UHGV virus genome: UHGV-0091505
Reading direction: 5' to 3' (one strand)
Source of the DNA: a virus
DNA length: 34,588 bases
The notes under the pieces are model-generated. The model saw only the letters and a program-made list of their open reading frames with translations. It did no database searches and was not told the origin of the DNA. This document shows, one piece after another, positions 2,037 to 34,538 of the stretch (positions within the stretch are counted from its first letter, which is position 1; each line of letters opens with the position of its first letter). The translations under genes and the position numbers were made by a program.

Positions 2037-2191
2037 TTATGTGTAAAGCGCACCTATTCTATGGTGGGCTGTGTGGGGGCACCGAAAGGTGCGCCGGGTC
2101 CTTTGTAGCCGGTTACGCCAACCCTGCACAGTTCACCACCAACCGATTGGCGTCGGTAGTGGTGATTAACCTAACTACAAAGGTGATCACT

Positions 2192-2878
2192 ATGACTGCT
2201 AACGTAACCCCATCTGTTTTTCATTTTGAATCAGAAGCAACCATTCGAGCCATTGTTATTGATGGAAATCCCTGGTTTGTTGCCAAAGACGTTATTAAAG
2301 CTCTTCAACTGACAAACCCGACTATGTCAATAAAATCTCTTGATGATGATGAAAGGGCTAAATTTAACTTAGGCCGTCAAGGCGAAACCAATATTATCAA
2401 CGAGTCAGGCCTCTACACACTGATCCTCCGCTGCCGCGACGCAGTGACACCAGGCACTATCCCCTACCGCTTTCGTAAATGGGTTACAGGTGAGGTACTT
2501 CCTCAGATCCGCCGCACCGGAAGTTACATTAAAAACTCGCTCTCGCAGGAAGAACGGATAAAGATGGTTGCCGACCAGGTAGCCAACGCCACGGCGTCAG
2601 CAGTGATGCAGGCGATGAAGATAGAGAACAAAACCTACAACGCCCCACTGAAGCCCGGCTACCGCAGCCTGATACATTCTCCGTCTGGTGTTCTCGGCCT
2701 GACGGAGAACTCACTGCTGATGAATCTGCTGAACCAGTTACAGGAAGACGGGCACGATGTATCTGGCGCGGCAGCGGAGCTGACCACCATGTTCTGCTAC
2801 ATCGTCGGTGTGAGCAAATGCCTGCGTGATATCCAGACACACGCGGAGTACATCAACGACAAGGCTGGGTTCTTCTGA
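2192..2878 (+). CDS. phage antirepressor, Bro-N domain family (Ant-like)
   Basis: ATG at 2192 with SD AAAGGTGA; N-terminal region FHFESEATIRAIVIDGNPWFVAKDVIKALQL..ESGLYTLILRCRD is a Bro-N/antirepressor signature; C-terminal domain is paralogous to ORF 1622-1879. Confidence 0.8.
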   Translation: MTANVTPSVFHFESEATIRAIVIDGNPWFVAKDVIKALQLTNPTMSIKSLDDDERAKFNLGRQGETNIINESGLYTLILRCRDAVTPGTIPYRFRKWVTGEVLPQIRRTGSYIKNSLSQEERIKMVADQVANATASAVMQAMKIENKTYNAPLKPGYRSLIHSPSGVLGLTENSLLMNLLNQLQEDGHDVSGAAAELTTMFCYIVGVSKCLRDIQTHAEYINDKAGFF

Positions 2879-3093: not shown

Positions 3094-5568
3094 TTATTGC
3101 GGAGTGACATCCTGTGGTCGCCACCAGTATGTCTGGTTAAACTCTTTCTTCGAACGTTGCTCCATTTTACGCAAATAACCTGGTGAAAAATACTCCTGCA
3201 TCTGGTTAAAGATCATGTGATCGAGAGCCGCCTTTAAGTACCAGAGATTCGCACCTGGCATCAGACCTTTCCCCAGCTTAACCAGATCACCACCAGTCTG
3301 CTCATTCTTCCCTTCCACAGCATTTAACGGTATGCCCTGAGCAATCTTCACTACGTCATCAACCAGGCCAGCTACCGGGCCAAGCATCGACGCCAGCGCG
3401 CCGCTTCCGTACCTAGTGTGATCTGACAATAAAAAGTCACCGTAAAGGCCAAGACCACCACCTTTCAGTAGAGCACCAAGCCAAAATTTAGCAGCATCTT
3501 CTCCTGTCATCTCGCGAGGATTACGACCAGACGCAAGGTCGTTAAGTTGCTGCGACAAAGCGCCAAGAATGGTCGTACTGGCAATAAACGTCGCAATATA
3601 TGCCGCACGCCCACCAGCAGACGGCATACCCATAGCGCGTGACCAGTGACGCATAACCACCGAGATAGGGAACGATTTAAACAGGAAAACACTTCTCGTT
3701 AATTCACCTTTCCATGTCCCACGCTGAATACCAGAACCGGTTATCAGTTGCTCACGTGCGCCAGGTGTAATAACAGCCATATCAACTTCTTCAGTTACGG
3801 CACCGAGCAGTTTACGCATTGCCTCAAATTTCACGCGTTCAGGCTCACCAAGATGTTTAACTACTGAATCAGGGATACGCATAATGCTTTCCGGTGTTAG
3901 CATCGTATTATTACCGTTCCCCCAGTCCTCCTGTTGCGCCAGCTTCCATACACTCCAGTCTGTGTCAGTAATCCCTTTACTTTTCAGGATACGAAAATCA
4001 GAGTCATCGAGGCTACGAAGGTCTGGTGTCCGTGACACTACTTCTCCCAGGCTTCCCATCATGGTTACGCCATAGGCGCGCTTGTGCGCATCTGACCATG
4101 CTGTAAGCCCACTGGCACGCATTACCGCCGTTGCCGCCCAACGAGACACAGACGGCCCCATATTATCCATCGCCCAGCGGTTAACGCTGCCAAGTAGAGA
4201 TTCCATCGCCAGACCAGCGCGGCGCGCCCGCGCAAGCTCAGTACGGTTCGTTGGGTCCATAGCTTCAAGCTGGTTGCGGAATAACTGGTTCATTGGAAGG
4301 TTGGTCACCTTCGCAGACAGATACATGGTTCCAAGATCAGAGAACGATGACAGCAACGCGGATCCGAGTCTGCTGGCAACCAGCCAGTTGCGGATATTGT
4401 CAGACCATCGCGCGATGTGAGGATTCGCAACAGGCTGTGTCTTTCCGGAAATAAAGTTGTACAGATTCTCTGTGTTGTTCGCCAGCCGCTCGACTTTACC
4501 GGTTTTACTCGGGTTAGCTGTTGCCGTTTCTGCCTTCACCTGATCAAGAAGGGAACGGAAAACATGATCGGGGTTTGGGCCATATGTTTCCACCAGAGCA
4601 ATATCTTTACTGATCCCTTCCAGGTGACCGACCATGATTTCCCATAGAGAGCGATCGCCATAAAGTTGCTGATATTGCAGATAGGAATCTGCATCTTTGA
4701 AATGTATCTGTCGTGATGCATTACCACGGTTAGCACGTGCACCGGAAATTCGCATTCCGGTATCAGTAAGCTTATTCAGCCCACCAGTAGCGATCGTGTT
4801 ATAAGCCTCTCCAAGAAATGCAGACAACTCGACATCGTTCATCAGTTGTCCATCGGCTCGGGTATAATATTTGCGATCCAGCTTACCTATAACATCGCTA
4901 ACCCATTTATCTTTTGATACCGCCCCAACCTTTCCCATAGAATGATGTTGAGGGATCCCCCAGTTTTCGAGATAGCCAATGTCCCCACCAGCATCATTAA
5001 ACCGGCGGCGCAGTAGCTCTGTCACTTCTCTCCACGCCTTAGCACCTTTTCTTGCTTTAGCATTGCCAGTATTTTGCCCTCGCATTTCATATACCAGGTC
5101 ACGCACGCCCGCTTCATCTTCAAACAGACCAAAAAAGCGAGGATCAACTGCTTCGAATGCCTCCTGCAATTGACTCAATGCATAATCACGGGTGGCTTTT
5201 GTTCTGGATTCAACAGAGAGGAAATTCGATTTACCGTCTGCATTAAAAGCAATAGTACGGTTAAGAGCGCCAAGTTTCCCATCAGCCCCTTGATAGCTAT
5301 TGATAAATTTATCCAATCTCTGACGTGCGGCTATAGTGAGGGCCACACGACGTTTCTTTAATACCGCTTCTCGCTGTAATTCTTCAGATGCCAATTGTGC
5401 TGCACGATATAGCCGCTCTGATTCGGAAAGTTGTCTCCATGACATCGGGTCATCACGAGCAATGGAGCGCATATTTCGATAAATGCGGTCTTCAATGTTC
5501 TGTATTTCTCGCGCCGTTAACGTGCGCTGCGCCGCCTGCTGAACCGCTTGTATACATTCCTGTCTCAT
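3094..5568 (-). CDS. internal virion / ejection protein (large, gp16-like position)
   Basis: 824-aa ORF in the podovirus core-protein block between the tail tubular genes and the tail fibre; glycine-rich hydrophobic stretch near C-terminus; assignment by position and size. Confidence 0.5.
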   Translation of the reverse strand: MRQECIQAVQQAAQRTLTAREIQNIEDRIYRNMRSIARDDPMSWRQLSESERLYRAAQLASEELQREAVLKKRRVALTIAARQRLDKFINSYQGADGKLGALNRTIAFNADGKSNFLSVESRTKATRDYALSQLQEAFEAVDPRFFGLFEDEAGVRDLVYEMRGQNTGNAKARKGAKAWREVTELLRRRFNDAGGDIGYLENWGIPQHHSMGKVGAVSKDKWVSDVIGKLDRKYYTRADGQLMNDVELSAFLGEAYNTIATGGLNKLTDTGMRISGARANRGNASRQIHFKDADSYLQYQQLYGDRSLWEIMVGHLEGISKDIALVETYGPNPDHVFRSLLDQVKAETATANPSKTGKVERLANNTENLYNFISGKTQPVANPHIARWSDNIRNWLVASRLGSALLSSFSDLGTMYLSAKVTNLPMNQLFRNQLEAMDPTNRTELARARRAGLAMESLLGSVNRWAMDNMGPSVSRWAATAVMRASGLTAWSDAHKRAYGVTMMGSLGEVVSRTPDLRSLDDSDFRILKSKGITDTDWSVWKLAQQEDWGNGNNTMLTPESIMRIPDSVVKHLGEPERVKFEAMRKLLGAVTEEVDMAVITPGAREQLITGSGIQRGTWKGELTRSVFLFKSFPISVVMRHWSRAMGMPSAGGRAAYIATFIASTTILGALSQQLNDLASGRNPREMTGEDAAKFWLGALLKGGGLGLYGDFLLSDHTRYGSGALASMLGPVAGLVDDVVKIAQGIPLNAVEGKNEQTGGDLVKLGKGLMPGANLWYLKAALDHMIFNQMQEYFSPGYLRKMEQRSKKEFNQTYWWRPQDVTPQ

Positions 5569-7376: not shown

Positions 7377-9886
7377 TGCGGAATATCTCCGGAGAATCTC
7401 TGACGCTTCTGTGTCAGATCAAGAACAACAGGAGAACCATCATCTTTCAGCAGATAACCAGTACCAAGTTTCACCAGATACTGACTATCGCCGTAACTTT
7501 GCAAACCATACTGACCAGGCGGTGTTTTTATCCCGGTGCCGACAACTTGTTCATTCCAAGCCTGATTAACCTGCTTATCGAATTGCTCTGCAGACATTCC
7601 CCACGGCAAAAGGACATTCCCCATTCCGTTATAGTCATGCACGCCACCTGTAGCTACGTTAACAGCCTGTTTCCAGATATCAGTGTCAATTTCGCCTGAT
7701 ATCACGCCTTTTTTCGCCATCACACCAGCGTAATAGTCCTTTGCGATCTCGTATGCCATTGATGCCCCCTGAGCATCACCAGCAAATGCATCCTTCACCA
7801 TGTCAGAAAACTCAAGGCGAAGATCAGCATCTTTAGGCATCGGAATACCTTTCGCATCATCAGTACCTTTACGAGCCGCCGCGCCAGCAAGAATTGTCTG
7901 CGCAGCGGTTTCAGGAGACACGGAAACATCCGGATTAAACCAGTTTTTTTCTGCCAAAATACCACCAGGCTTGTCCATCAGTATCCCGGCAACGGCAGCA
8001 GATGGAGCGTTGGCACTGATCTGCTGTAGTGCTGACATATACACCTGCCCACCACCAGTGCTCTGCCTGATGGTATCGAGATATGCTGCCTGTTGGGAAA
8101 CTGGAGCATCACGAAAGAAAACACCGATCTGATTGGCCTCGTCTTTGGAAAAGAACGTCAGTGGAGTGCCATATGACTTAGCAAGGTCACTGACCTGAGC
8201 GGCACGCAAGGCAACGCTCTGTCCAAAGTTATCCTTATTGCTCATGTCGATAGGCTTTGCCTGTCCGGAGGCAAGAGAGAACTGCACAGGATCCGACTGC
8301 CGCTGCTTTATCACCTGATTTGCAGCCGAAACAACGTTGTCATAAAGAGCTGCACGAGACGCATAACCCTCCCCTGTCTCACCAGTATCCGGACGTAATT
8401 GCTCAACATATGCGGTAATGCTGCTTGTCGGCATGTTGCGGAAAGAGCCTATATACTGTCCGGCGATCTGCGTATTTCTGAACTCGGTATATCGCAGGTT
8501 TCCTTCTCTGACGCCATAAGCTGCAATAAAATCAGCCTCACCAGGTGGATTAGGAAATTCAACGCCACGCATATACGCAGCCGTCGCATCGCGAACCTGG
8601 CTGTCAATCATCGTTTTATATTCAGCCTGCTGCTGCCGACGCAGTTGATCCGCCTGTCGCATAAAACTTGCCTGCGCCTCAGGAGATGCCGCATCGAATG
8701 CTGCATTACCGGTATAGCGTTTGGTGTTGGTTGGAATTGTTGATAAACCAAGTGCTGCACTGACACCAGCAGTTAACTGCTGATCACTGTATGGCTGACT
8801 ACCGTTCTCATGATGGATAATGGCTGCACAAAGCGCCTTCAGGGTATCAGGATTTGATGCATCGAGAGGCTCATCAGCAGAAACGCCAAGTTGTTCGCAC
8901 ACTGCTTTGATATACGACATAGTGTCATTTTTATCAGTAGGCGGTGCCCAGCGATTAATTATCTCGCTGACGGTATCGATACCCTGCCGCTGATACGACA
9001 TCAGGTTACGCCCTAATGCACGAATCCCGTGCTCAGGTGTTTCGAATTTAGCAAATCGACCATCATCACCGGTCTGGCCTACCCACGGATTAGTTTTGCT
9101 GTATTCGAGATTTCCTGGGTTATTGTTGCGTATGCCACGGGCACGCTCGGAAGAGTCACTATCTGCTACAGCACGGCGAGCTCCAGCAGCAGTATCACTT
9201 AACTCGCCATTACTTTGGATGAATGCGGTCGCATTGTTTGCCGACCACTGGGACAATGCGGCATCAGCAACCTTCTCTTTAAACTCGATTTTCTTGGCCT
9301 GGATTTGCTCGTCGCTCCAGCCATGCGCAATGCCGTAATCCTCAATTTGCTGGAAAGTTTGCTTATTAGCCAATACGTATGCGGCGTTGTCGCCATACAA
9401 TGCTGCGGCATTTTTACCATTGTTCAGCAGCGTCGCCTGAAACTGGCCTTCTTCGTAGGCATTTATTTGCCCTATCTCGTGCCGCCCGGCCTGCGTAGTG
9501 AACTGAATGCGCTGCTGCTGAGCCTGCTGCATGAAAGCATTACGAGCCTGTTCATCCGGCAGCGACATAGCCAGTTGTTCGACCTGAGCATCAAACTGCT
9601 GCGTATACTCCTGACCTTTTCCAATAGCATTTTTCCCTTTCAGGTTAAGCAAACCTGTTTCAGGGTTATTCAGCAGATCGCTGCTTATCTGGCTTAAGCT
9701 AAGAGAAGCATCCTGAGCCATAGCAACATTCGCGCGCTGTTTTGCCTGCGCAATAATACCTGCATATTGCTCTGCAACATCGCCAAGTACATCACCGACA
9801 TTTGGTGTCTGAAACGATGAGAATCCCTGCGTCGAAATCCCTCTGCTCTGAACCTGACGGCCCGATGTTGTTGGTACAACTGGCAT
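7373..9886 (-). CDS. internal virion protein (gp15-like position)
   Basis: 837-aa ORF in the core-protein block; contains a conserved-looking segment GIRNNNPGNLEYSKTNPWVGQ..FAKFETPEHGIRALGRNL of unknown function. Confidence 0.5.
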   Translation of the reverse strand: MPVVPTTSGRQVQSRGISTQGFSSFQTPNVGDVLGDVAEQYAGIIAQAKQRANVAMAQDASLSLSQISSDLLNNPETGLLNLKGKNAIGKGQEYTQQFDAQVEQLAMSLPDEQARNAFMQQAQQQRIQFTTQAGRHEIGQINAYEEGQFQATLLNNGKNAAALYGDNAAYVLANKQTFQQIEDYGIAHGWSDEQIQAKKIEFKEKVADAALSQWSANNATAFIQSNGELSDTAAGARRAVADSDSSERARGIRNNNPGNLEYSKTNPWVGQTGDDGRFAKFETPEHGIRALGRNLMSYQRQGIDTVSEIINRWAPPTDKNDTMSYIKAVCEQLGVSADEPLDASNPDTLKALCAAIIHHENGSQPYSDQQLTAGVSAALGLSTIPTNTKRYTGNAAFDAASPEAQASFMRQADQLRRQQQAEYKTMIDSQVRDATAAYMRGVEFPNPPGEADFIAAYGVREGNLRYTEFRNTQIAGQYIGSFRNMPTSSITAYVEQLRPDTGETGEGYASRAALYDNVVSAANQVIKQRQSDPVQFSLASGQAKPIDMSNKDNFGQSVALRAAQVSDLAKSYGTPLTFFSKDEANQIGVFFRDAPVSQQAAYLDTIRQSTGGGQVYMSALQQISANAPSAAVAGILMDKPGGILAEKNWFNPDVSVSPETAAQTILAGAAARKGTDDAKGIPMPKDADLRLEFSDMVKDAFAGDAQGASMAYEIAKDYYAGVMAKKGVISGEIDTDIWKQAVNVATGGVHDYNGMGNVLLPWGMSAEQFDKQVNQAWNEQVVGTGIKTPPGQYGLQSYGDSQYLVKLGTGYLLKDDGSPVVLDLTQKRQRFSGDIPQ

Positions 9887-19506: not shown

Positions 19507-19583
19507 GTGGCATTAGCTCAGTTGGACAGAGCAACCGCCTTCTAAGCGGTTGGTCGCAGGTTCGAATCCTGCATGCCACGCCA
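19507..19583 (+). tRNA. tRNA-Arg (anticodon UCU), argU-like
   Basis: 77 nt cloverleaf folded by hand: acceptor GTGGCAT/ATGCCAC, D-arm GCTC/GAGC, anticodon stem ACCGC/GCGGT with loop CTTCTAA, T-arm GCAGG-TTCGAAT-CCTGC, discriminator G and encoded CCA. Confidence 0.85.
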
Positions 19584-28384: not shown

Positions 28385-28969
28385 ATGAAAAGTATCCAGG
28401 ACGTCCGCAGGCAAAATCTCAACGACTTGATCGACCGTGAATTCAATGGTGTTCAGACGCGGATGGCAGAAAAACTTGGAACTCAGGCAAATCTGGTAAA
28501 CCGCTGGGCTCTTGGCAAGAAGGTTATCGGCGACCAGGTTGCGCGAAAAATTGAAGCTGCCGCCAATAAACCCCGTAACTGGCTTGATATCGATCGCTCG
28601 CTTTCTCAGGAAGGTTTTCAGCCTGTCGGACCAAGCGACATTGGTCAACTGGCGGCTCACAACCTGGAACGCTGGATGAGCGAAAGCCGCGACCTTTCAA
28701 CACAGGGAAAACTTCACCGCGCATCCGGCGTCGCCCAGGTGACAATCAGCCGCCTGTTAAACAATGAGGTCAGCGTTTCCATTTCCACCCTGGAGAATGT
28801 TGCATCCGCATTCGGGCGTCACGGCTATGAATTACTGATTCACCCGCACGACCCTGCGACCATCAACTATGACCGCTCGCGCTACGCATTGTTACCCGAA
28901 ACCGAGAAAGCAAAGATCGAAAGTTACATTGAATTTGTCATCAACCAGAACGAAAAAAACAAACAATAA
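28385..28969 (+). CDS. prophage repressor, dual-HTH type without S24 peptidase domain
   Basis: 194 aa; two HTH-like segments (QTRMAEKLGTQANLVNRWALGKK and HRASGVAQVTISRLLNNE); no Ser-Lys autocleavage motif recognisable; divergent from cro, same strand as the early-left operon. Confidence 0.7.
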   Translation: MKSIQDVRRQNLNDLIDREFNGVQTRMAEKLGTQANLVNRWALGKKVIGDQVARKIEAAANKPRNWLDIDRSLSQEGFQPVGPSDIGQLAAHNLERWMSESRDLSTQGKLHRASGVAQVTISRLLNNEVSVSISTLENVASAFGRHGYELLIHPHDPATINYDRSRYALLPETEKAKIESYIEFVINQNEKNKQ

Positions 28970-28989: not shown

Positions 28990-29015
28990 AAGCCGCCTTC
29001 TGGCGGCTTTTTTAT
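28990..29015 (+). terminator. intrinsic terminator after repressor gene
   Basis: AAGCCGCC-TTCT-GGCGGCTT followed by TTTTTTATT. Confidence 0.65.
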
Positions 29016-29026
29016 TGCCTGTTCGA

Positions 29027-29103
29027 TTACCTGTCGGGTAATTTTTTTAACTCATATCTATTGACATCAAACCAAATACGAATAATCATTACCTCAACGG
29101 TAA
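29027..29103 (+). promoter_or_regulatory. pL-like promoter (TTGACA-16 nt-TAATCA) flanked by two operator palindromes
   Basis: TTACCTGTCGGGTAA (29027-29041), -35 29061-29066, -10 29083-29088, TTACCTCAACGGTAA (29089-29103). Confidence 0.55.
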
Positions 29104-29122: not shown

Positions 29123-29275
29123 ATGCAGTGGAAAATCATCAACGGTTGGTACTGCGTTACTGCATGCGGATTCATGAGCTGGAAGTTCCGCACCTTACAG
29201 GAAGGTATTAAGTGGGCTTTCGTCAGCAAAGAAGCTCGCGATGTGGCCAACGATAACGAGATATGGGAGGGCTGA
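29123..29275 (+). CDS. small hypothetical protein (50 aa), not in the supplied ORF track
   Basis: ATG 29123 preceded by GAGGT; MQWKIINGWYCVTACGFMSWKFRTLQEGIKWAFVSKEARDVANDNEIWEG; stop 2 nt before the next gene. Confidence 0.3.
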   Translation: MQWKIINGWYCVTACGFMSWKFRTLQEGIKWAFVSKEARDVANDNEIWEG

Positions 29276-29277
29276 TA

Positions 29278-29577
29278 ATGAACGTTAATCAGCAGAAAAA
29301 TCTTCAAAAAATCATGCTGGCATTCGACAAGGACTACCGCCTGTCAGAACAGCTATATGACCGACAAGTTGAACTGATCGAAAGCATCCGGCTTCATCAA
29401 CTGGCCTCAACTTTTGACGCTGTAACAGGCAAAGGAGTTCGCCAGGAAGTGCTGGAGGCAGCTAAAGACAGCCCTGAGTTCGAAGAACTGATGGATGCCT
29501 ACCGGCGCGAGGCAATGGCAATTATCGCCCGCTGGGATCTGGCGGATCGGATTGATGGGCAGAGGGAAGCGGCATGA
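29278..29577 (+). CDS. hypothetical early protein
   Basis: About 100 aa from ATG 29278 (MNVNQQ..), coupled to the exonuclease gene. Confidence 0.5.
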   Translation: MNVNQQKNLQKIMLAFDKDYRLSEQLYDRQVELIESIRLHQLASTFDAVTGKGVRQEVLEAAKDSPEFEELMDAYRREAMAIIARWDLADRIDGQREAA

Positions 29578-30395
29578 AACCGGGAATTTATTTCGACATC
29601 AGCAACGAAGACTACCACGCCGGTGACGGCGTGAGTAAGTCGCAACTGGACATGGTTGCCAAGAATCCGGCGCTTCTTAAATGGGTTCAGGCAGCACCAG
29701 AAGACGAAGAGAAAAAGTCTGCACTGGATATGGGAACCGCATTGCACTGTCTGCTTCTGGAGCCTGGAGAATTCGACAAACGCTTCATTGTTTCACCGAA
29801 GTTCGATCGTCGGACGAAACAAGGTAAAGCTGACGAAGAAGCATTTCTTCGTGATGTAGCGGATATGGGGATTACGGTACTTGATGCCGAGCAGTGGCGG
29901 AAACTGGAGCTGATGCGTGATAGCGCAATGGCTCACCCGGCGGCACGCTGGATGCTGGAAGCACCTGGTTACTGCGAAGCATCAATGTACTGGAATGATG
30001 AAGAGACTGGTGAGTTGTGCCGCATTCGTCCAGACAAATGGCTGAACGAGCACAACGTGATCGTCGACGTGAAAAAGGTTGCAGATATGGACCGTTTTGC
30101 ACGCCACATCGAGGAATTCCGCTACCACGTGCAGGACGCAATGTACCGCGAAGGAGCGATGAGGGTTACTGGTCAGTCGCATGGTTTTTTCTTTCTTGCC
30201 GTGAGCGAAAGCATTGATTGTGGTCGGTATCCGGTACGCGTGTTCGAGCTGGATGCGCCGGATGTCGATGCCGGGCACGCTCTGTTCCGCCGGGATCTGA
30301 ATACCTATCACGAATGCCGCATCAATGATGAATGGGGCGGCGTGGAAATTATTAAACGCCCTGACTGGGCACGTAAACAGGATATGTACGTATGA
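29574..30395 (+). CDS. PD-(D/E)XK family exonuclease (RecE/YqaJ-like recombination exonuclease)
   Basis: 273 aa; motifs RIRPD and IVDVKK consistent with a PD-(D/E)XK active site; followed by an overlapping annealing-protein gene. Confidence 0.7.
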   Translation: MKPGIYFDISNEDYHAGDGVSKSQLDMVAKNPALLKWVQAAPEDEEKKSALDMGTALHCLLLEPGEFDKRFIVSPKFDRRTKQGKADEEAFLRDVADMGITVLDAEQWRKLELMRDSAMAHPAARWMLEAPGYCEASMYWNDEETGELCRIRPDKWLNEHNVIVDVKKVADMDRFARHIEEFRYHVQDAMYREGAMRVTGQSHGFFFLAVSESIDCGRYPVRVFELDAPDVDAGHALFRRDLNTYHECRINDEWGGVEIIKRPDWARKQDMYV

Positions 30396-31273
30396 GCAAT
30401 GATATCGCAATCACATCACAACCAGGCGCAACTGTAGGTACTGCTGCGGCAATCTTCAGCCCGGAGGGCATGAATCAACTGGTGCGTTTCGCGGAGTTGA
30501 TGTCACAAAGCAAAGCGACTGTACCGAAACATCTTGAAGGCAAACCTTCCGATTGTCTGGCGGTGACCATGCAGGCGGCACAATGGGGAATGAACCCTTT
30601 CGCCGTGGCGCAGAAAACGCATGTGGTAAACGGAACGTTAGGCTACGAAGCACAGTTGGTAAACGCGGTCGTATCCTCTTCCAGCCTGCTAGCGACACGC
30701 CTGAATTATCGCTGGAGCGGTGACTGGTCGAATGTTAACGGCAAAACAGATAAATCACCGAATCTGACGGTAACTGTGTCAGCAGTTCTTAAAGGAGAAG
30801 CAGAACCCCGTGAGCTTACCATCAGTATGGCGCAAGCCGGAGTGCGTAACTCTCCATTGTGGGAGCAGGATCCGCGCCAGCAGCTTGCCTATCTTTGCAC
30901 GAAACGATGGGCTCGCCTGCACGCTCCTGATGTACTTCTCGGTGTTTACACCCCTGACGAATTACAGGAAACGGCACCGCGCGTTGAGCGAGACATTACT
31001 CCGCAAACAACTACGGCTGCGGGAATGAATAGTCTGATCAACGCTAAAACAGTGAAAAAGCCTGATGAGCAAACGCGTAAAGCGGATAGCCGTGATCCAG
31101 AAGAAATGCTGATGGCCTTTACCAGCGCAGCGATGAATTACAGCACTGTCTCCGAACTGGATAAGGCTTACAAATACATTGCACAAAAACTTTCAGATGA
31201 TGACGAACTGCTGGCAAAAGCCACCGACGTTTACAGCGTTCGTCGGGAAGAATTAAACGAAACATCTATGTAA
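30392..31273 (+). CDS. RecT/Red-beta-type single-strand annealing protein (putative)
   Basis: 293 aa; start overlaps exonuclease stop (ATGA); exo-plus-annealase gene pair. Confidence 0.6.
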   Translation: MSNDIAITSQPGATVGTAAAIFSPEGMNQLVRFAELMSQSKATVPKHLEGKPSDCLAVTMQAAQWGMNPFAVAQKTHVVNGTLGYEAQLVNAVVSSSSLLATRLNYRWSGDWSNVNGKTDKSPNLTVTVSAVLKGEAEPRELTISMAQAGVRNSPLWEQDPRQQLAYLCTKRWARLHAPDVLLGVYTPDELQETAPRVERDITPQTTTAAGMNSLINAKTVKKPDEQTRKADSRDPEEMLMAFTSAAMNYSTVSELDKAYKYIAQKLSDDDELLAKATDVYSVRREELNETSM

Positions 31274-31322
31274 CCACCACCGCGGCGCCACGCGCGCCGC
31301 ACTGCAACCAAGAGAGGTATTT

Positions 31323-31571
31323 ATGAAAGGTGCATTAGGTAAGAAGGAACTCCTGGCGGTGGTGCCACTGTCATGGAGCACTATCGACCGTATGGAGCGC
31401 GCAGGGGAATTTCCTAAACGCTGGTATATCACTGACAAACGCTGCGCATGGAACCGTGACGAAGTTGAGCGTTGGCTTGATGAACGTCAGGCAGCAAGCC
31501 CGGCAGAGTTCCAGGGTAAAAAACCTCCTGTTCAGCAACGTGTATATCGTCCTGTGAGCAACGCTGCATGA
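31323..31571 (+). CDS. AlpA-family DNA-binding protein (excisionase/regulator-like)
   Basis: 82 aa; LLAVVPLSWSTIDRMERAGEFPKRWYITDKRCAWNRDEVERWL matches the AlpA-type winged-helix pattern. Confidence 0.6.
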   Translation: MKGALGKKELLAVVPLSWSTIDRMERAGEFPKRWYITDKRCAWNRDEVERWLDERQAASPAEFQGKKPPVQQRVYRPVSNAA

Positions 31572-31680
31572 GTGTGCTGCTAAGGCACTGGAGCAAATGG
31601 TCAGGATGGTACTTATTCCTGGCCTCTGTTTCAGCATGGCTTTATCTGCTGGCATTAATTTTCAGAGAGGGTTGGATTAA

Positions 31681-31980
31681 GTGAGAAAGTTAAGCCGACT
31701 TGAAAAATATCACATGAACAAGGTTTCAATGCGCAGTCCGTCAAAGATTGTCGCCGTTACTCCTGCGGCGATAGAGATCGAAAAACGCGCGATTGAAAGA
31801 GAGAAAAAAGGGCAGTTCCGCATTGCCGCCCACCTTTGGCTTCAGTGTATGGATGTTGCTTCTGGTGATGTTGAGCGTGCAAGGATCGCGGTTCGCAGGG
31901 ACCAATGTATCACAAAAGGTAACGGCCTTCGCCGTGGAGACTATAGCGGTATAGGATGTTGTGGGGTGGTTTATGACTAA
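31681..31980 (+). CDS. PerC/ANR-like small regulator (tentative)
   Basis: 99 aa with GTG start (alternative ATG at 31714); segment KKGQFRIAAHLWLQCM resembles the PerC/ANR core motif; weak. Confidence 0.35.
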   Translation: MRKLSRLEKYHMNKVSMRSPSKIVAVTPAAIEIEKRAIEREKKGQFRIAAHLWLQCMDVASGDVERARIAVRRDQCITKGNGLRRGDYSGIGCCGVVYD

Positions 31981-32623
31981 GAAATACACACTAATCTATG
32001 CAGATCCACCTTGGGTATACCGGGACAAAGCCGCGGATGGTAATCGCGGTGCTGGTTTTAAATATCCGGTTATGAGTGTGCTGGATATCTGCCGCCTTCC
32101 TGTGTGGGATTTGGCCGATGAAAACTGTCTGTTGGCCATGTGGTGGGTGCCAACACAACCACTCGAAGCACTAAAGGTTGTTGAAGCCTGGGGATTTCGT
32201 CTGATGACGATGAAGGGCTTCACGTGGATAAAATGTGGTAGTCGACAACCAGATAAACTGGTTATGGGTATGGGACACATGACTCGCGCCAATAGTGAAG
32301 ATTGCCTGTTTGCAGTAAAGGGAAAACTACCTCCACGCATTAATGCAGGGATCGTTCAGTCATTTACCGCACCGCGGCTTGAGCATTCAAGAAAACCAGA
32401 TGTCGTTCGTGAAAAACTTGTGCAATTGTTAGGCGATGTTTCTCGCATTGAACTGTTCGCCCGCCAGACGTCTCATGGCTTCGATGTTTGGGGTAATCAG
32501 TGCGAAGACCCGGCAGTGCAACTACACCCTGGATACGCGTTGGATATTGGCGGATTAACAAATGCATTCAGCAATGCTCCGGTGTCACCAATAGACAACC
32601 AGGGGCGGGAGCGTGCAGCATGA
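31973..32623 (+). CDS. MT-A70 family N6-adenine DNA methyltransferase
   Basis: Start ATG 31973 ([14 protein letters not shown]); DPPW catalytic motif; stop overlaps phosphatase start. Confidence 0.8.
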
Positions 32624-33279
32624 ACCTATATCAACGCATCAATGGCGCTGACTGGTGCAATATCTTCGTCGTCGGCGATCTGCATGGGTGCTACACGCTG
32701 CTGATGAACGAACTCGACAAAGTTTCATTCGACCCGGCGCGCGATTTACTTATTTCCGTTGGTGACCTTGTTGACCGCGGCGCTGAAAACGTCGAATGCC
32801 TGGATTTGATTACTATGCCGTGGTTCCGAGCTGTTCGTGGCAACCATGAGCAGATGATGCTGGATGCACTGGTCAACGGCGGAAGTTTCGGACATTGGAT
32901 GTCAAACGGCGGTGGATGGTGGCACCAACTTGATTCTGAGCAGGATGTGCAACTCAAATACCTTCTGCCAAAGATTACCAACCTCCCGATGATTATCGAA
33001 CTGGTTACCGGCAATAAGAAGGTCGTCATCTGTCACGCAGACTACCCGCACAACGAATACGCATTCGATAAGCCAGTACCAGAAGAAATGGTGATATGGA
33101 ATCGTGAGCGGGTTAGCGACGCGCAGGACGGTATTGTCTCGGAGATAACCGGTGCCGATTTGTTCATCTTCGGTCATACGCCAGCACATCACCCACTGGT
33201 GTATGCAAACCAGATGTACATCGACACCGGCGCAGTGTTCTGCGGAAATCTGACGCTTACCAAAGTCCAGGAAGGATAG
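32620..33279 (+). CDS. serine/threonine protein phosphatase (lambda PPase-like metallophosphatase)
   Basis: Motifs GDLHGC, GDLVDRG, GNHE and long stretches matching lambda phosphatase ([47 protein letters not shown]). Confidence 0.9.
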
Positions 33280-33281
33280 AA

Positions 33282-34538
33282 TTATTTATTACTGTCTTCC
33301 ATCCACCTCTCAAACTTCGACGGGGAGAACGGAATCAGATCCGTATGCTCCCCGTCAATCCAGGAATCAATCATATCGGCCCACTGCTGCAACATGTAGG
33401 CGCGCTGTCTTGCGTATTCCGCTTTGTTATATACGGCGCGCACACCTTTCTGCTCATGTGCCAGAGCCTTTTCAATCCAGTCTGAAGGATAACCAGCCTC
33501 ATGCAACAACGTACTGGCTGTACGGCGCATATCGTGTACGGTGAAGTCCTGAATATGCTCACCATCTTCATTTATTATTTTCACCGTTCTGTCGATCAGA
33601 GAGTTCAGCGCGGCATTAGATAATGGCTTCCGGAAATTGTAACGACCAGGAACCAGATATTCACTTCCACCAGCGCACATCTGTAACCCGACCAATATAT
33701 CCTGTGCCTGTTTAGGCAGGTAAATAACGTGCGCCCGGCTTCCCTTCATGCGGTCTGAAGGAATTGTCCATGTCCATTTTTTAAAATCTATTTCATCCCA
33801 CGTTGCATTGGTGAACTCGCCTTTACGAACCATAGTGATAAGCACAAGCTTTAAAGCCATTTTCATAGTGCCCATAGCACCAATGGCATCCAGCGTGCGG
33901 AAGAACAGGCCAATTTCTTCTGGTGTCAGTGTTCGCTCTCGTGGTTTAAATATGGCGATAGACGAAGGTTTAATGTCAGCCGCAGGATTAAACAAACCAT
34001 GACCACGGTCATTGGCGTGACGGTATACGCTGCTGATGATCTCCCTGGCCTGTACTGCTGTTGCACGGCCACCGCGTTCGACAATCCGGTCACACAAATC
34101 ACGAACCATCGATGTGGTAATTTCAGCCATCATTTTGTTGCCAAGAACCGGAAGTATGTCACGGTCAATCACCGCCTGCTTCATTGCGCGGGTACTATCA
34201 GCCAGGATGACGTGTTTCATATAACTGTCGGTATGTACCGCAAACGTCTCGGCACCACGAATCTTTTTGATACCGTCACGTTTAGCCGCAGCCGGTGACA
34301 GACCTGCTTTAAGCAGCTTCTTTGCAGCTATCAGTTCTTCTCGCGCTTCTGACAGGCTGATACCGTCACGCCCATACTGCCCTATTACCAGCGTTTCGCG
34401 GCGACCGTTGATACGGTAGTCGTAGCGAAACGAGACCGTGCCTGACGTGAGCACAGCTACATACAGCCCGTCACGATCGGAGACCTTGTACAGTTTGTCC
34501 TGCGGCTTGAGGTTTTTTAATTTTGTATCGGTAAGCAC
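33282..34538 (-). CDS. tyrosine integrase (P4-type with N-terminal arm-binding domain)
   Basis: 418 aa; GTG start; N-terminal DUF4102-type arm-binding domain (LTDTKLKNLKPQDKLYKVSDRDGLYVAV); catalytic-domain residues HDMRRT...Y near C-terminus. Confidence 0.9.
   Translation of the reverse strand: MLTDTKLKNLKPQDKLYKVSDRDGLYVAVLTSGTVSFRYDYRINGRRETLVIGQYGRDGISLSEAREELIAAKKLLKAGLSPAAAKRDGIKKIRGAETFAVHTDSYMKHVILADSTRAMKQAVIDRDILPVLGNKMMAEITTSMVRDLCDRIVERGGRATAVQAREIISSVYRHANDRGHGLFNPAADIKPSSIAIFKPRERTLTPEEIGLFFRTLDAIGAMGTMKMALKLVLITMVRKGEFTNATWDEIDFKKWTWTIPSDRMKGSRAHVIYLPKQAQDILVGLQMCAGGSEYLVPGRYNFRKPLSNAALNSLIDRTVKIINEDGEHIQDFTVHDMRRTASTLLHEAGYPSDWIEKALAHEQKGVRAVYNKAEYARQRAYMLQQWADMIDSWIDGEHTDLIPFSPSKFERWMEDSNK

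Follow-up and report, generated by a model that had tools for sequence, protein, structure and literature searches.

A candidate PerC-like/MT-A70 methylase module and a phosphatase cassette at the end of the early-left operon of a Uetakevirus prophage

Adenine methyltransferases of the MT-A70 type usually need partners (PMC10810198). The only characterised relative of the enzyme considered here, M.EcoPA8orf6770P of the Shiga toxin 2a (Stx2a) phage PA8, is nearly inactive alone. It binds 1:1 to PNB-2, which is encoded by the adjacent upstream gene; together the two proteins favour 16S rRNA as substrate, and an intact methylase gene increases spontaneous induction of the Shiga-toxin prophage as well as virulence (PMC10810198). 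A close homologue, M.EcoGV, has been listed as GATC-specific after over-expression (PMC6602927). A second set of described systems comprises PerC of enteropathogenic Escherichia coli (EPEC; plasmid pMAR2), Pch of enterohaemorrhagic E. coli (EHEC) prophages and the ANR proteins such as Aar, which are stand-alone regulators encoded beside AraC-type genes or on islands and act on H-NS or AraC proteins: Pch relieves H-NS silencing (PMC4764244) and Aar binds H-NS (PMC5570504). The mechanism and origin of this group are still poorly understood. In SfV (orf40-dam), ST64B (Sb43-Sb44) and E. coli K-12 (YfdN-YfdM), a PerC-domain gene lies directly ahead of, and overlaps, an N6-adenine methylase gene in an early operon. 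Here we analyze positions 31681-33279 of the viral sequence UHGV-0091505 (34,588 nucleotides, hereafter the window), where a PerC-like gene, an MT-A70 methylase gene and a lambda-type phosphatase gene follow one another.

The window is most of a temperate podovirus prophage of the phiV10/epsilon15 type, genus Uetakevirus. The region of interest begins exactly at the start codon of the first, and ends exactly at the stop codon of the third, of a series of plus-strand open reading frames (ORFs) that overlap by 8 and then 4 nucleotides (nt):

31681-31980, plus strand: PerC-family protein of 99 amino acids (aa), GTG start; assigned from Pfam, PHROG, homologues and a structure model.
31973-32623, plus strand: MT-A70 beta-class N6-adenine methyltransferase of 216 aa, ATG start; assigned from Pfam PF05063 and the DPPW motif.
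32620-33279, plus strand: Mn-dependent protein phosphatase of the lambda-PP/NinI type, 219 aa, ATG start; assigned by phmmer against 1G5B.

The initial annotation of this DNA had named the same three families, and our profile and homology searches support each assignment. The genes are real, and as annotation nothing here is new, since the gene set is already known and named. Positions 31200-33400 are 99.1% identical to phage vB_EcoP_PAS61 (OQ921333), whose record carries an adenine DNA methyltransferase, a serine/threonine protein phosphatase NinI and, for the PerC-like gene, a hypothetical protein; RefSeq uses the labels PerC family transcriptional regulator, MT-A70 family methyltransferase and serine/threonine protein phosphatase. 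The full three-gene stretch occurs at 99-100% identity in 143 of 5426 complete E. coli genomes (~3%), and in strain WWCOL-236 the prophage adjoins guaA. What the initial annotation looks to have overlooked is that the PerC-like and methylase genes appear to be a functional pair. Our best overall explanation, to which we give a probability of about 55%, is that the three genes form the promoter-distal, translationally coupled end of a repressor-controlled early-left operon, in which the PerC-like protein and the methylase would act as one module and the phosphatase is cargo.

Judged from its sequence, membership of the first protein in the PerC family is solid, and "PerC/ANR-like" is a fair description. 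The Pfam PerC model (PF06069) scored 30.1 bits against a gathering cut-off of 22.6, aligning residues 35-80 with positions 5-50 of the 90 in the profile. The phrog_868 family ("transcriptional activator") matched over the full length of the protein (E=6e-62). BLASTP against PerC of EPEC E2348/69 pMAR2 gave 24 of 60 identical residues (40%, E=2e-10) and hhalign a probability of 95.6%, so the earlier judgement that the PerC assignment is weak does not hold. Residues A37, G44, A49, W53, E65, R66, R73, C76 and Y98 are invariant across the PerC-like protein, PerC and a third subfamily. A profile search for the ANR family had also been called for; the NCBIfam ANR model NF033650 matched the same residues as PerC with 23.6 bits and E=3.4e-5, below its cut-off of 32. 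EPEC PerC itself scored 18.2 bits against this model, and the matches of both proteins indicate that the PerC and ANR families are related. The ANR signature A-x3-E-x7-A-x3-W (PMC4983702) is present, and across 27 homologues A37, E41, A49 and W53 vary little or not at all. No AraC-type protein, such as the cognate AraC/XylS-family activator expected beside an ANR gene, was found among the eight neighbouring gene products scanned.

The PerC-like protein has the same domain as EPEC PerC, EHEC Pch and ANR proteins such as Aar, and it shares with EPEC PerC the motifs E-x2-G-x-[FY]-R-x-A-A-x2-W, E-R, R-x2-C-I and Y-S, in this order. Unlike these proteins it is encoded by an early gene kept genus-wide beside a methylase, and it has an extra N-terminal helix (L-x-K-Y-H) and lacks the C-terminal 25 residues of EPEC PerC. 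RefSeq starts the gene later (31714/31729), giving 88 aa in phiV10 and 83 aa in E. coli genomes. The 99-residue form is conserved end to end in homologues from Salmonella, Citrobacter and Klebsiella, including the N-terminal L-x-K-Y-H helix, and this full-length conservation argues that the GTG at 31681 is the right start; the codon is preceded by a Shine-Dalgarno-like AGAGGG and overlaps the preceding stop by 4 nt. On this comparison the shorter RefSeq models are probably truncated. In one database protein, P0087, the N-terminus of the 38-aa membrane protein encoded just upstream continues directly into the last two-thirds of the PerC-like sequence, probably through a deletion that joined both genes.

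An AlphaFold model of the PerC-like protein (predicted local distance difference test score, pLDDT, 74) has an N-terminal helix, a three-helix core (residues 28-77) and a C-terminal beta-hairpin. Neither the domain search nor the model contained a helix-turn-helix (HTH). A fold search of the model against the PDB returned nothing below E=3, just weak MIT/TPR-like helical bundles, and a sequence search of the PDB gave no match, nor did PADLOC. The predicted structure looks like a protein-binding module rather than a DNA binder.

The methylase ORF opens at GTG 31961, ahead of the ATG at 31973. Its product matches the entire Pfam MT-A70 profile (78.8 bits, positions 1-172 of 172), PADLOC returns a generic type II methylase match, and YADPPW at residues 9-14 (DPPW at 11-14) aligns with the same motif in the structures of Tetrahymena MTA1 and human METTL3. 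Identity to the Stx2a-phage orthologue M.EcoPA8orf6770P is 83-84% over residues 1-187 and 75% overall, and the C-terminal tails of the two proteins diverge after residue 187. The genes for M.EcoPA8orf6770P and M.EcoGV likewise belong to temperate phages and are found close to the integrase, their start codons overlapped by a small gene that precedes them. The PA8 and window loci also differ. The upstream gene in PA8 encodes PNB-2 (phrog_1680), an unrelated winged helix-turn-helix (wHTH) protein, whereas here it encodes the PerC-like protein; the PA8 pair is preceded by a terminator and a promoter reported to be active approaching stationary phase, whereas the window pair lies inside a repressed early operon; and the C-terminal ~27 methylase residues proposed to bind PNB-2 differ in the window enzyme.

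We compared the window with eight Uetakevirus genomes (PAS61, phiV10, epsilon15, SPN1S, 65FD, Tyrion, BUCT554 and BUCT711), the phages coming from four host genera (E. coli, Salmonella, Enterobacter and Klebsiella). The PerC-like and MT-A70 genes were present in the same order and in the same operon in 9/9 genomes. The common arrangement is AlpA, a small membrane protein (where annotated), the PerC-like gene, zero to two small genes, the methylase, one variable gene and a convergent integrase. The closest described relative in layout, phiV10 (NC_007804), has the AlpA, membrane protein, PerC and methylase genes and the convergent integrase in common with the window phage. The PerC-like gene occurs in 36 phage records, all of them from phages or prophages whose hosts fall into four enterobacterial genera; the ones examined are Uetakevirus, and every enterobacterial record found in a capsid-protein search also has the PerC-like gene. 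The initial annotation had called all three genes cargo; presence in all nine Uetakeviruses argues that the PerC-like and methylase genes are not, and the description fits the phosphatase, as set out below.

To look at the gene just upstream of related methylases, we fetched 80 viral contigs encoding methylase relatives, and two further sets of 80 IMG/VR loci each, one by a second methylase clade and one by the phrog_1324 partner family. In a lambdoid-type phage (locus L082), a 146-aa protein with a winged helix and a PerC domain is encoded directly against an MT-A70 gene whose product is 44% identical to the window methylase. This partner belongs to phrog_1324 (YfdN type), and the C-terminal half of phrog_1324 aligned with the Uetakevirus PerC-like family with an hhalign probability of 98.2% (E=6e-14, 65 columns). 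Among the second-clade methylase loci, a PerC-domain ORF ended between -4 and +12 nt from the methylase start in 57/80; the remainder comprised one in-frame fusion, seven loci with the ORF further upstream and 15 with no partner. When loci were fetched by the partner, a methylase lay directly downstream in 70/80, ~700 nt away in 9/80 and was absent in 1/80. The partner thus nearly always occurs with a methylase (79/80), and the methylase also occurs without the partner. Partners have diverged to 22-60% identity, whereas identity among their methylases does not fall below 75%. In loci L099 and L146 the protein encoded directly against the methylase gene is a 76-aa partner with the PerC domain alone, and in L157 a Uetakevirus-type PerC protein abuts the other methylase clade. 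At 2057-3160 of L110, partner and MT-A70 read as a single 367-aa ORF, which may be a true fusion or a sequencing error. A small wHTH gene abuts the methylase in Tyrion, and its product matches the N-terminal half of phrog_1324 as a homologue (probability 83%, E=9e-6), from which it appears that the two halves of the partner are split in Uetakeviruses and fused elsewhere, by domain fission or fusion.

The pairing also extends to other methylase families. Seven named phages share the gene order replication protein, PerC-domain protein, adenine methylase, a LexA-like gene (in 5/7) and RusA. The methylase belongs to Pfam Dam (PF05869) in SfV, SfII, mEp460, ST64B, Lys8385Vzw and phiSTEC1575-Stx2k, and to D12 (PF02086) in F1055; in the IMG/VR loci it is MT-A70, and the PerC-domain gene is thus kept across three methylase families. 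Notes in the ST64B record tie its pair to YfdN and YfdM of the E. coli K-12 element CPS-53. RefSeq names the products of SfV dam (2292-2945 of L254) and ST64B sb44 (1983-2876 of L256) "phosphoadenosine phosphosulfate reductase", against a Pfam Dam PF05869 match at E~1e-45; the reductase name looks like an annotation error. Partners of the SfV/ST64B/YfdN type carry an N-terminal winged helix and a Y-L-[AS]-G-x-[FY]-V-G tail and follow the replication gene in the right-hand early operon, whereas the window protein has ~30 residues before the core and no winged helix, and its C-terminal end resembles the tail in outline only. The window pair overlaps by 8 nt (ATGACTAA, 31973-31980).

Because the pair recurs in two unrelated backbones and survives exchange of the methylase, the PerC-like protein most likely works with the methylase. 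From gene context we regard a functional link within one module as somewhat probable. How the two products would cooperate is a separate matter: that the PerC-like protein is a physical partner of the enzyme, and that it instead regulates expression or activity of the methylase, are possibilities we hold tentatively, with a slight preference for the first. In the mechanism we propose, adenine methylation in early lytic development would be gated or directed by the PerC-like protein as a small helical adaptor or regulator, and this protein would not be a virulence regulator of the host in the manner of PerC or Pch. Methylation may fall on Dam-like GATC sites in the DNA of phage or host; 16S rRNA, reported for the Stx-phage orthologue, is another possible target. 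As far as we checked, the pairing of a PerC domain with an adenine methylase is an unreported variant of the theme of an MT-A70 enzyme with a small upstream partner; our literature search for a link between PerC and MT-A70 found no report, its coverage being incomplete and its matches dominated by the word "percent".

Several observations weigh against such a module. The PerC-like protein and PNB-2 gave no alignment at E<=100, and phrog_1324 showed no similarity to PNB-2. SPN1S, Tyrion, epsilon15, BUCT554, BUCT711 and 65FD have one or two genes between the PerC-like gene and the methylase. Such intervening genes, found in most Uetakeviruses outside the phiV10 group, encode a DUF1317 protein, a wHTH protein and a DndB-like DGQHR protein. 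The structure model of the PerC-like protein is of moderate confidence only. Whether the methylase is MT-A70, Dam or D12, the partner keeps one and the same C-terminal tail. Such a lack of co-variation argues against a tight complex specific to one methylase fold and is also compatible with a link at the level of regulation or process. Of the 122 phrog_1324-methylase pairs, 120 have a common replication gene upstream, so most of the counts reflect descent within one backbone and the pairing is represented by effectively two independent lineages. Finally, EPEC PerC, EHEC Pch and the ANR proteins act without a methylase, on H-NS and AraC-type proteins (PMC4764244, PMC5570504).

In the main alternative the functions are independent and adjacency reflects backbone synteny alone. 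The PerC-like protein would then be an early anti-silencing or anti-activator protein directed at H-NS/StpA or an AraC-type regulator, the enzyme a stand-alone Dam-like methylase guarding replicating phage DNA from GATC-directed or other restriction, and the phosphatase a separate piece of cargo. The identity to EPEC PerC and the conserved ANR signature fit this account, as do the documented actions of Pch and Aar on H-NS (PMC4764244, PMC5570504) and a predicted helical bundle with weak MIT/TPR-like matches and no HTH. The intervening genes in other Uetakeviruses, the listing of M.EcoGV-type enzymes as GATC methylases (PMC6602927) and the PADLOC type II methylase match are equally compatible with it. 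However, it leaves unexplained both the PerC-domain genes standing ahead of three methylase families in a second backbone (79/80) and the in-frame fusion, and the purified Stx-phage orthologue showed almost no DNA methylase activity alone (PMC10810198). On balance we regard independent functions as possible but improbable.

A bolder proposal, which we put forward with considerable reserve, is that PerC-domain proteins are dedicated companions of phage N6-adenine methyltransferases, serving as regulators or targeting subunits, and that PerC, Pch and ANR are descendants of this phage module that lost the methylase. With PerC domains found beside adenine methylases of three families in two phage lineages, the PerC/Pch/ANR group would have a concrete and testable origin and function. 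If the PerC-like protein is indeed a methylase partner, many "orphan" phage methylases and "transcriptional activator" genes would need re-reading, and the PerC-like protein and MT-A70 enzyme would constitute a two-part methylation system tuning early lytic development or induction. A database search with a mixed PerC alignment returned no distant members and was dominated by close relatives. At 3560-4555 of the SPN1S locus (L005), a DndB-like DGQHR protein (Pfam DndB, E=1e-42) is encoded directly upstream of, and overlapping, the MT-A70 start, as yet another type of neighbour for the methylase.

The genes upstream place the pair in an operon with a recognizable control region:

28385-28969, plus strand: prophage repressor with two HTH domains; "putative repressor" in PAS61 and phiV10, with weak NCBIfam HTH-family matches.
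28990-29009, plus strand: strong intrinsic terminator after the repressor gene, an 8-bp GC-rich stem followed by a T run; also annotated in phiV10.
29027-29103, plus strand: pL-like promoter with operator-like palindromes, from a pattern search and the conserved layout.
29123-31273, plus strand: promoter-proximal operon genes with 4-nt overlaps, namely two small ORFs (phrog_898 and phrog_856), an exonuclease and RecT.
29574-30395, plus strand: RecE-like PD-(D/E)XK exonuclease.
30392-31273, plus strand: RecT.
31323-31571, plus strand: AlpA-family excisionase or regulator (Pfam Phage_AlpA, 24.2 bits against a cut-off of 21; phrog_66).
31568-31684, plus strand: 38-aa membrane protein (phrog_17484, E=5e-27).

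The repressor gene has the same orientation as the early-left operon. The pL-like promoter consists of a -35 element TTGACA at 29061, a 17-nt spacer and a -10 element AATCAT ending at 29089, and is bracketed by the palindromes TTACC-N5-GGTAA at 29027-29041 and 29089-29103. This pattern occurs 11 times in the window against 0.49 expected, 8/11 copies being intergenic (starts at 1531, 1911, 19170, 22316, 22334, 25922, 25984, 28267, 28315, 29027 and 29089); with a 6-nt spacer the pattern has no match in the window, whereas the 5-nt spacer matches. Pairs 62 nt apart bracket promoters at 29027/29089 and 25922/25984, and further copies lie in the divergent repressor promoter region, ahead of the anti-repressor gene (isrK/C4/ant) and ahead of the integrase. 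The end of the window cuts through the copy that lies upstream of the integrase. The palindrome also occurs at 9382 of locus L001. This distribution suggests that one repressor controls several promoters genome-wide. The palindrome-flanked promoter layout and the 62-nt spacing are kept in phiV10, SPN1S and Tyrion, and the central 5 nt vary.

Downstream of the promoter, nine genes run from 29123 to 33279 with overlaps of 4-8 nt and one 49-nt gap. On the operon strand this interval has no promoter-like site and no convincing terminator, with one weak terminator match inside the methylase coding sequence, and scans with Rfam and for tRNAs found no RNA gene within 31681-33279. Sequence and conservation together give good support to an operator-controlled pL-like operon, in agreement with the initial annotation. 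The exonuclease and RecT are two overlapping ORFs in the window (29574-31273) and in PAS61; in phiV10, RecE-RecT is annotated as one fusion protein (4314-6074 of L002).

A repressor-controlled, operator-flanked operon should leave the three genes silent in the lysogen, and they would be made only after infection or prophage induction. This bears on the view taken in the initial annotation, that the three are independent cargo genes altering the lysogen, with the PerC-like protein cross-regulating host genes and an orphan methylase changing the host epigenome. Its family assignments are right, and the Stx-phage orthologue does raise spontaneous induction and virulence (PMC10810198); that gene is said to use its own stationary-phase promoter. 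In the window, by contrast, transcription of the three genes would start at the conserved promoter between the two operators, since the operon has no other promoter-like site and no convincing terminator inside it, the PerC-like and methylase genes are genus-wide rather than variable, and the three genes have a G+C content of 0.49-0.51 against 0.495 for the window, as in the rest of the phage. We consider action in the lysogen quite unlikely. The methylome comparison of a lysogen with a cured strain that had been proposed as a check would not be decisive. The closest characterised homologues of the enzyme are reported as GATC-specific or as a 16S rRNA methylase, and therefore no additional DNA motif would be expected in a dam+ lysogen, whether or not the enzyme is active. 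The comparison would tell little, since the lysogen should keep the operon repressed and host Dam would hide a GATC specificity, which is the likely one.

Least likely of all is a strict holoenzyme of the PNB-2 type, in which the PerC-like protein would direct the MT-A70 enzyme to RNA and so make it a methylase of 16S rRNA that tunes induction, exactly as in PA8. In its favour, the catalytic cores of the window enzyme and M.EcoPA8orf6770P are 83-84% identical, the overlap of the upstream gene with the methylase start recalls that of PNB-2, and MT-A70 enzymes usually need partners (PMC10810198). Against it, the PerC-like protein has no sequence similarity to PNB-2 and no recognizable nucleic-acid-binding domain, and the C-terminal ~30 methylase residues proposed to hold PNB-2 differ here.

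The third gene has a different history, which involves two further features:

32626-33298, no strand assigned: replacement cassette of 673 bp, from the alignment with phiV10.
33282-34538, minus strand: P4-type tyrosine integrase, from profile matches; converges on the operon.

The phosphatase ORF opens at GTG 32500, ahead of the ATG at 32620. Its product aligned without gaps to the lambda phosphatase 1G5B (phmmer E=9e-100), with 145/217 residues identical (67%). The motifs GDxHG, GDxVDRG and GNHE are present, and D20, H22, D49, R53, R73, N75, H76, H139 and H186, the nine metal-binding or catalytic residues of the 1G5B structure, are all kept (9/9). Models of E. coli PrpA and PrpB gave strong yet sub-threshold matches, and PADLOC had no match for the protein. 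By these comparisons the enzyme class is clear, that of an Mn-dependent phosphatase of the Ser/Thr/Tyr type.

Aligned with phiV10, the phosphatase from codon 3 onward plus the last ~6 integrase codons replace a 203-bp DUF1382 segment. The left breakpoint (32625/32626) lies just past the ATGAAC shared as the first two codons of both genes; the right one (~33298/33299) lies inside the last six integrase codons, such that the integrase ends in ERWMEDSNK here and in EKWMAGE in phiV10, the remainder of the protein being 98.5% identical. Copies of the cassette with more than 95% identity occur in 146 E. coli records, in the integrase-adjacent context only. No donor was found, the next best matches being ninI genes of the phi80 and HK225 type at ~78-79% DNA identity. 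The slot is variable across the genus: it holds the phosphatase in the window, a 64-aa DUF1382 gene in phiV10 and most relatives, a "transacetylase repressor" in epsilon15, and small genes of unknown function in other genomes. No promoter or terminator of its own was seen flanking any of the three genes, and none of them qualifies as a moron. The phosphatase is an in-operon cassette swap rather than a classical moron and, from the comparison of genomes, is the only cargo among the three.

The position of the gene is also unusual. Lambda NinI is encoded in the nin region of the right-hand delayed-early operon, and its phi80 and HK225 homologues follow ninE, whereas the window phosphatase is the last gene of the left operon and abuts the integrase; all other phage phosphatase homologues (phi80, HK225, BUCT711) were located in the right-hand early operon. 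In the Klebsiella phage BUCT711 (3501-4163 of L007), a NinI-like phosphatase lies beside the replication gene in that operon. As this location differs from that in the window, Uetakevirus has acquired a phosphatase gene on at least two occasions, each at its own site. In lambda, ninI is non-essential (PMC10695390), in line with the earlier statement that such genes are not needed for growth in model systems, and our literature search found no biological role for lambda-type phosphatases in phage. A reasonable guess, and only that, is that the enzyme would dephosphorylate host proteins or proteins modified by a rival phage during takeover. The phosphatase and integrase stop codons are 2 bp apart, and no terminator or sib-like structure was found between the two genes. 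The initial annotation had placed the three genes upstream of the integrase; since the integrase is on the minus strand and convergent, this description needs correcting.

Elsewhere in the window, Rfam identified on the plus strand the Hfq-binding RNA IsrK (1962-2038, 63.8 bits) and the C4 antisense RNA (2057-2143, 79.5 bits), where an anti-repressor (Ant) gene begins (2039-2878, plus strand), and a second small ORF resembling the Ant C-terminus lies at 1514-1879. Positions 1962-2878 are an RNA-controlled anti-repressor module of the P1/Gifsy type in a podovirus. A tRNA-Arg gene (anticodon TCT, 19507-19583, plus strand) lies within the mostly minus-strand late region.

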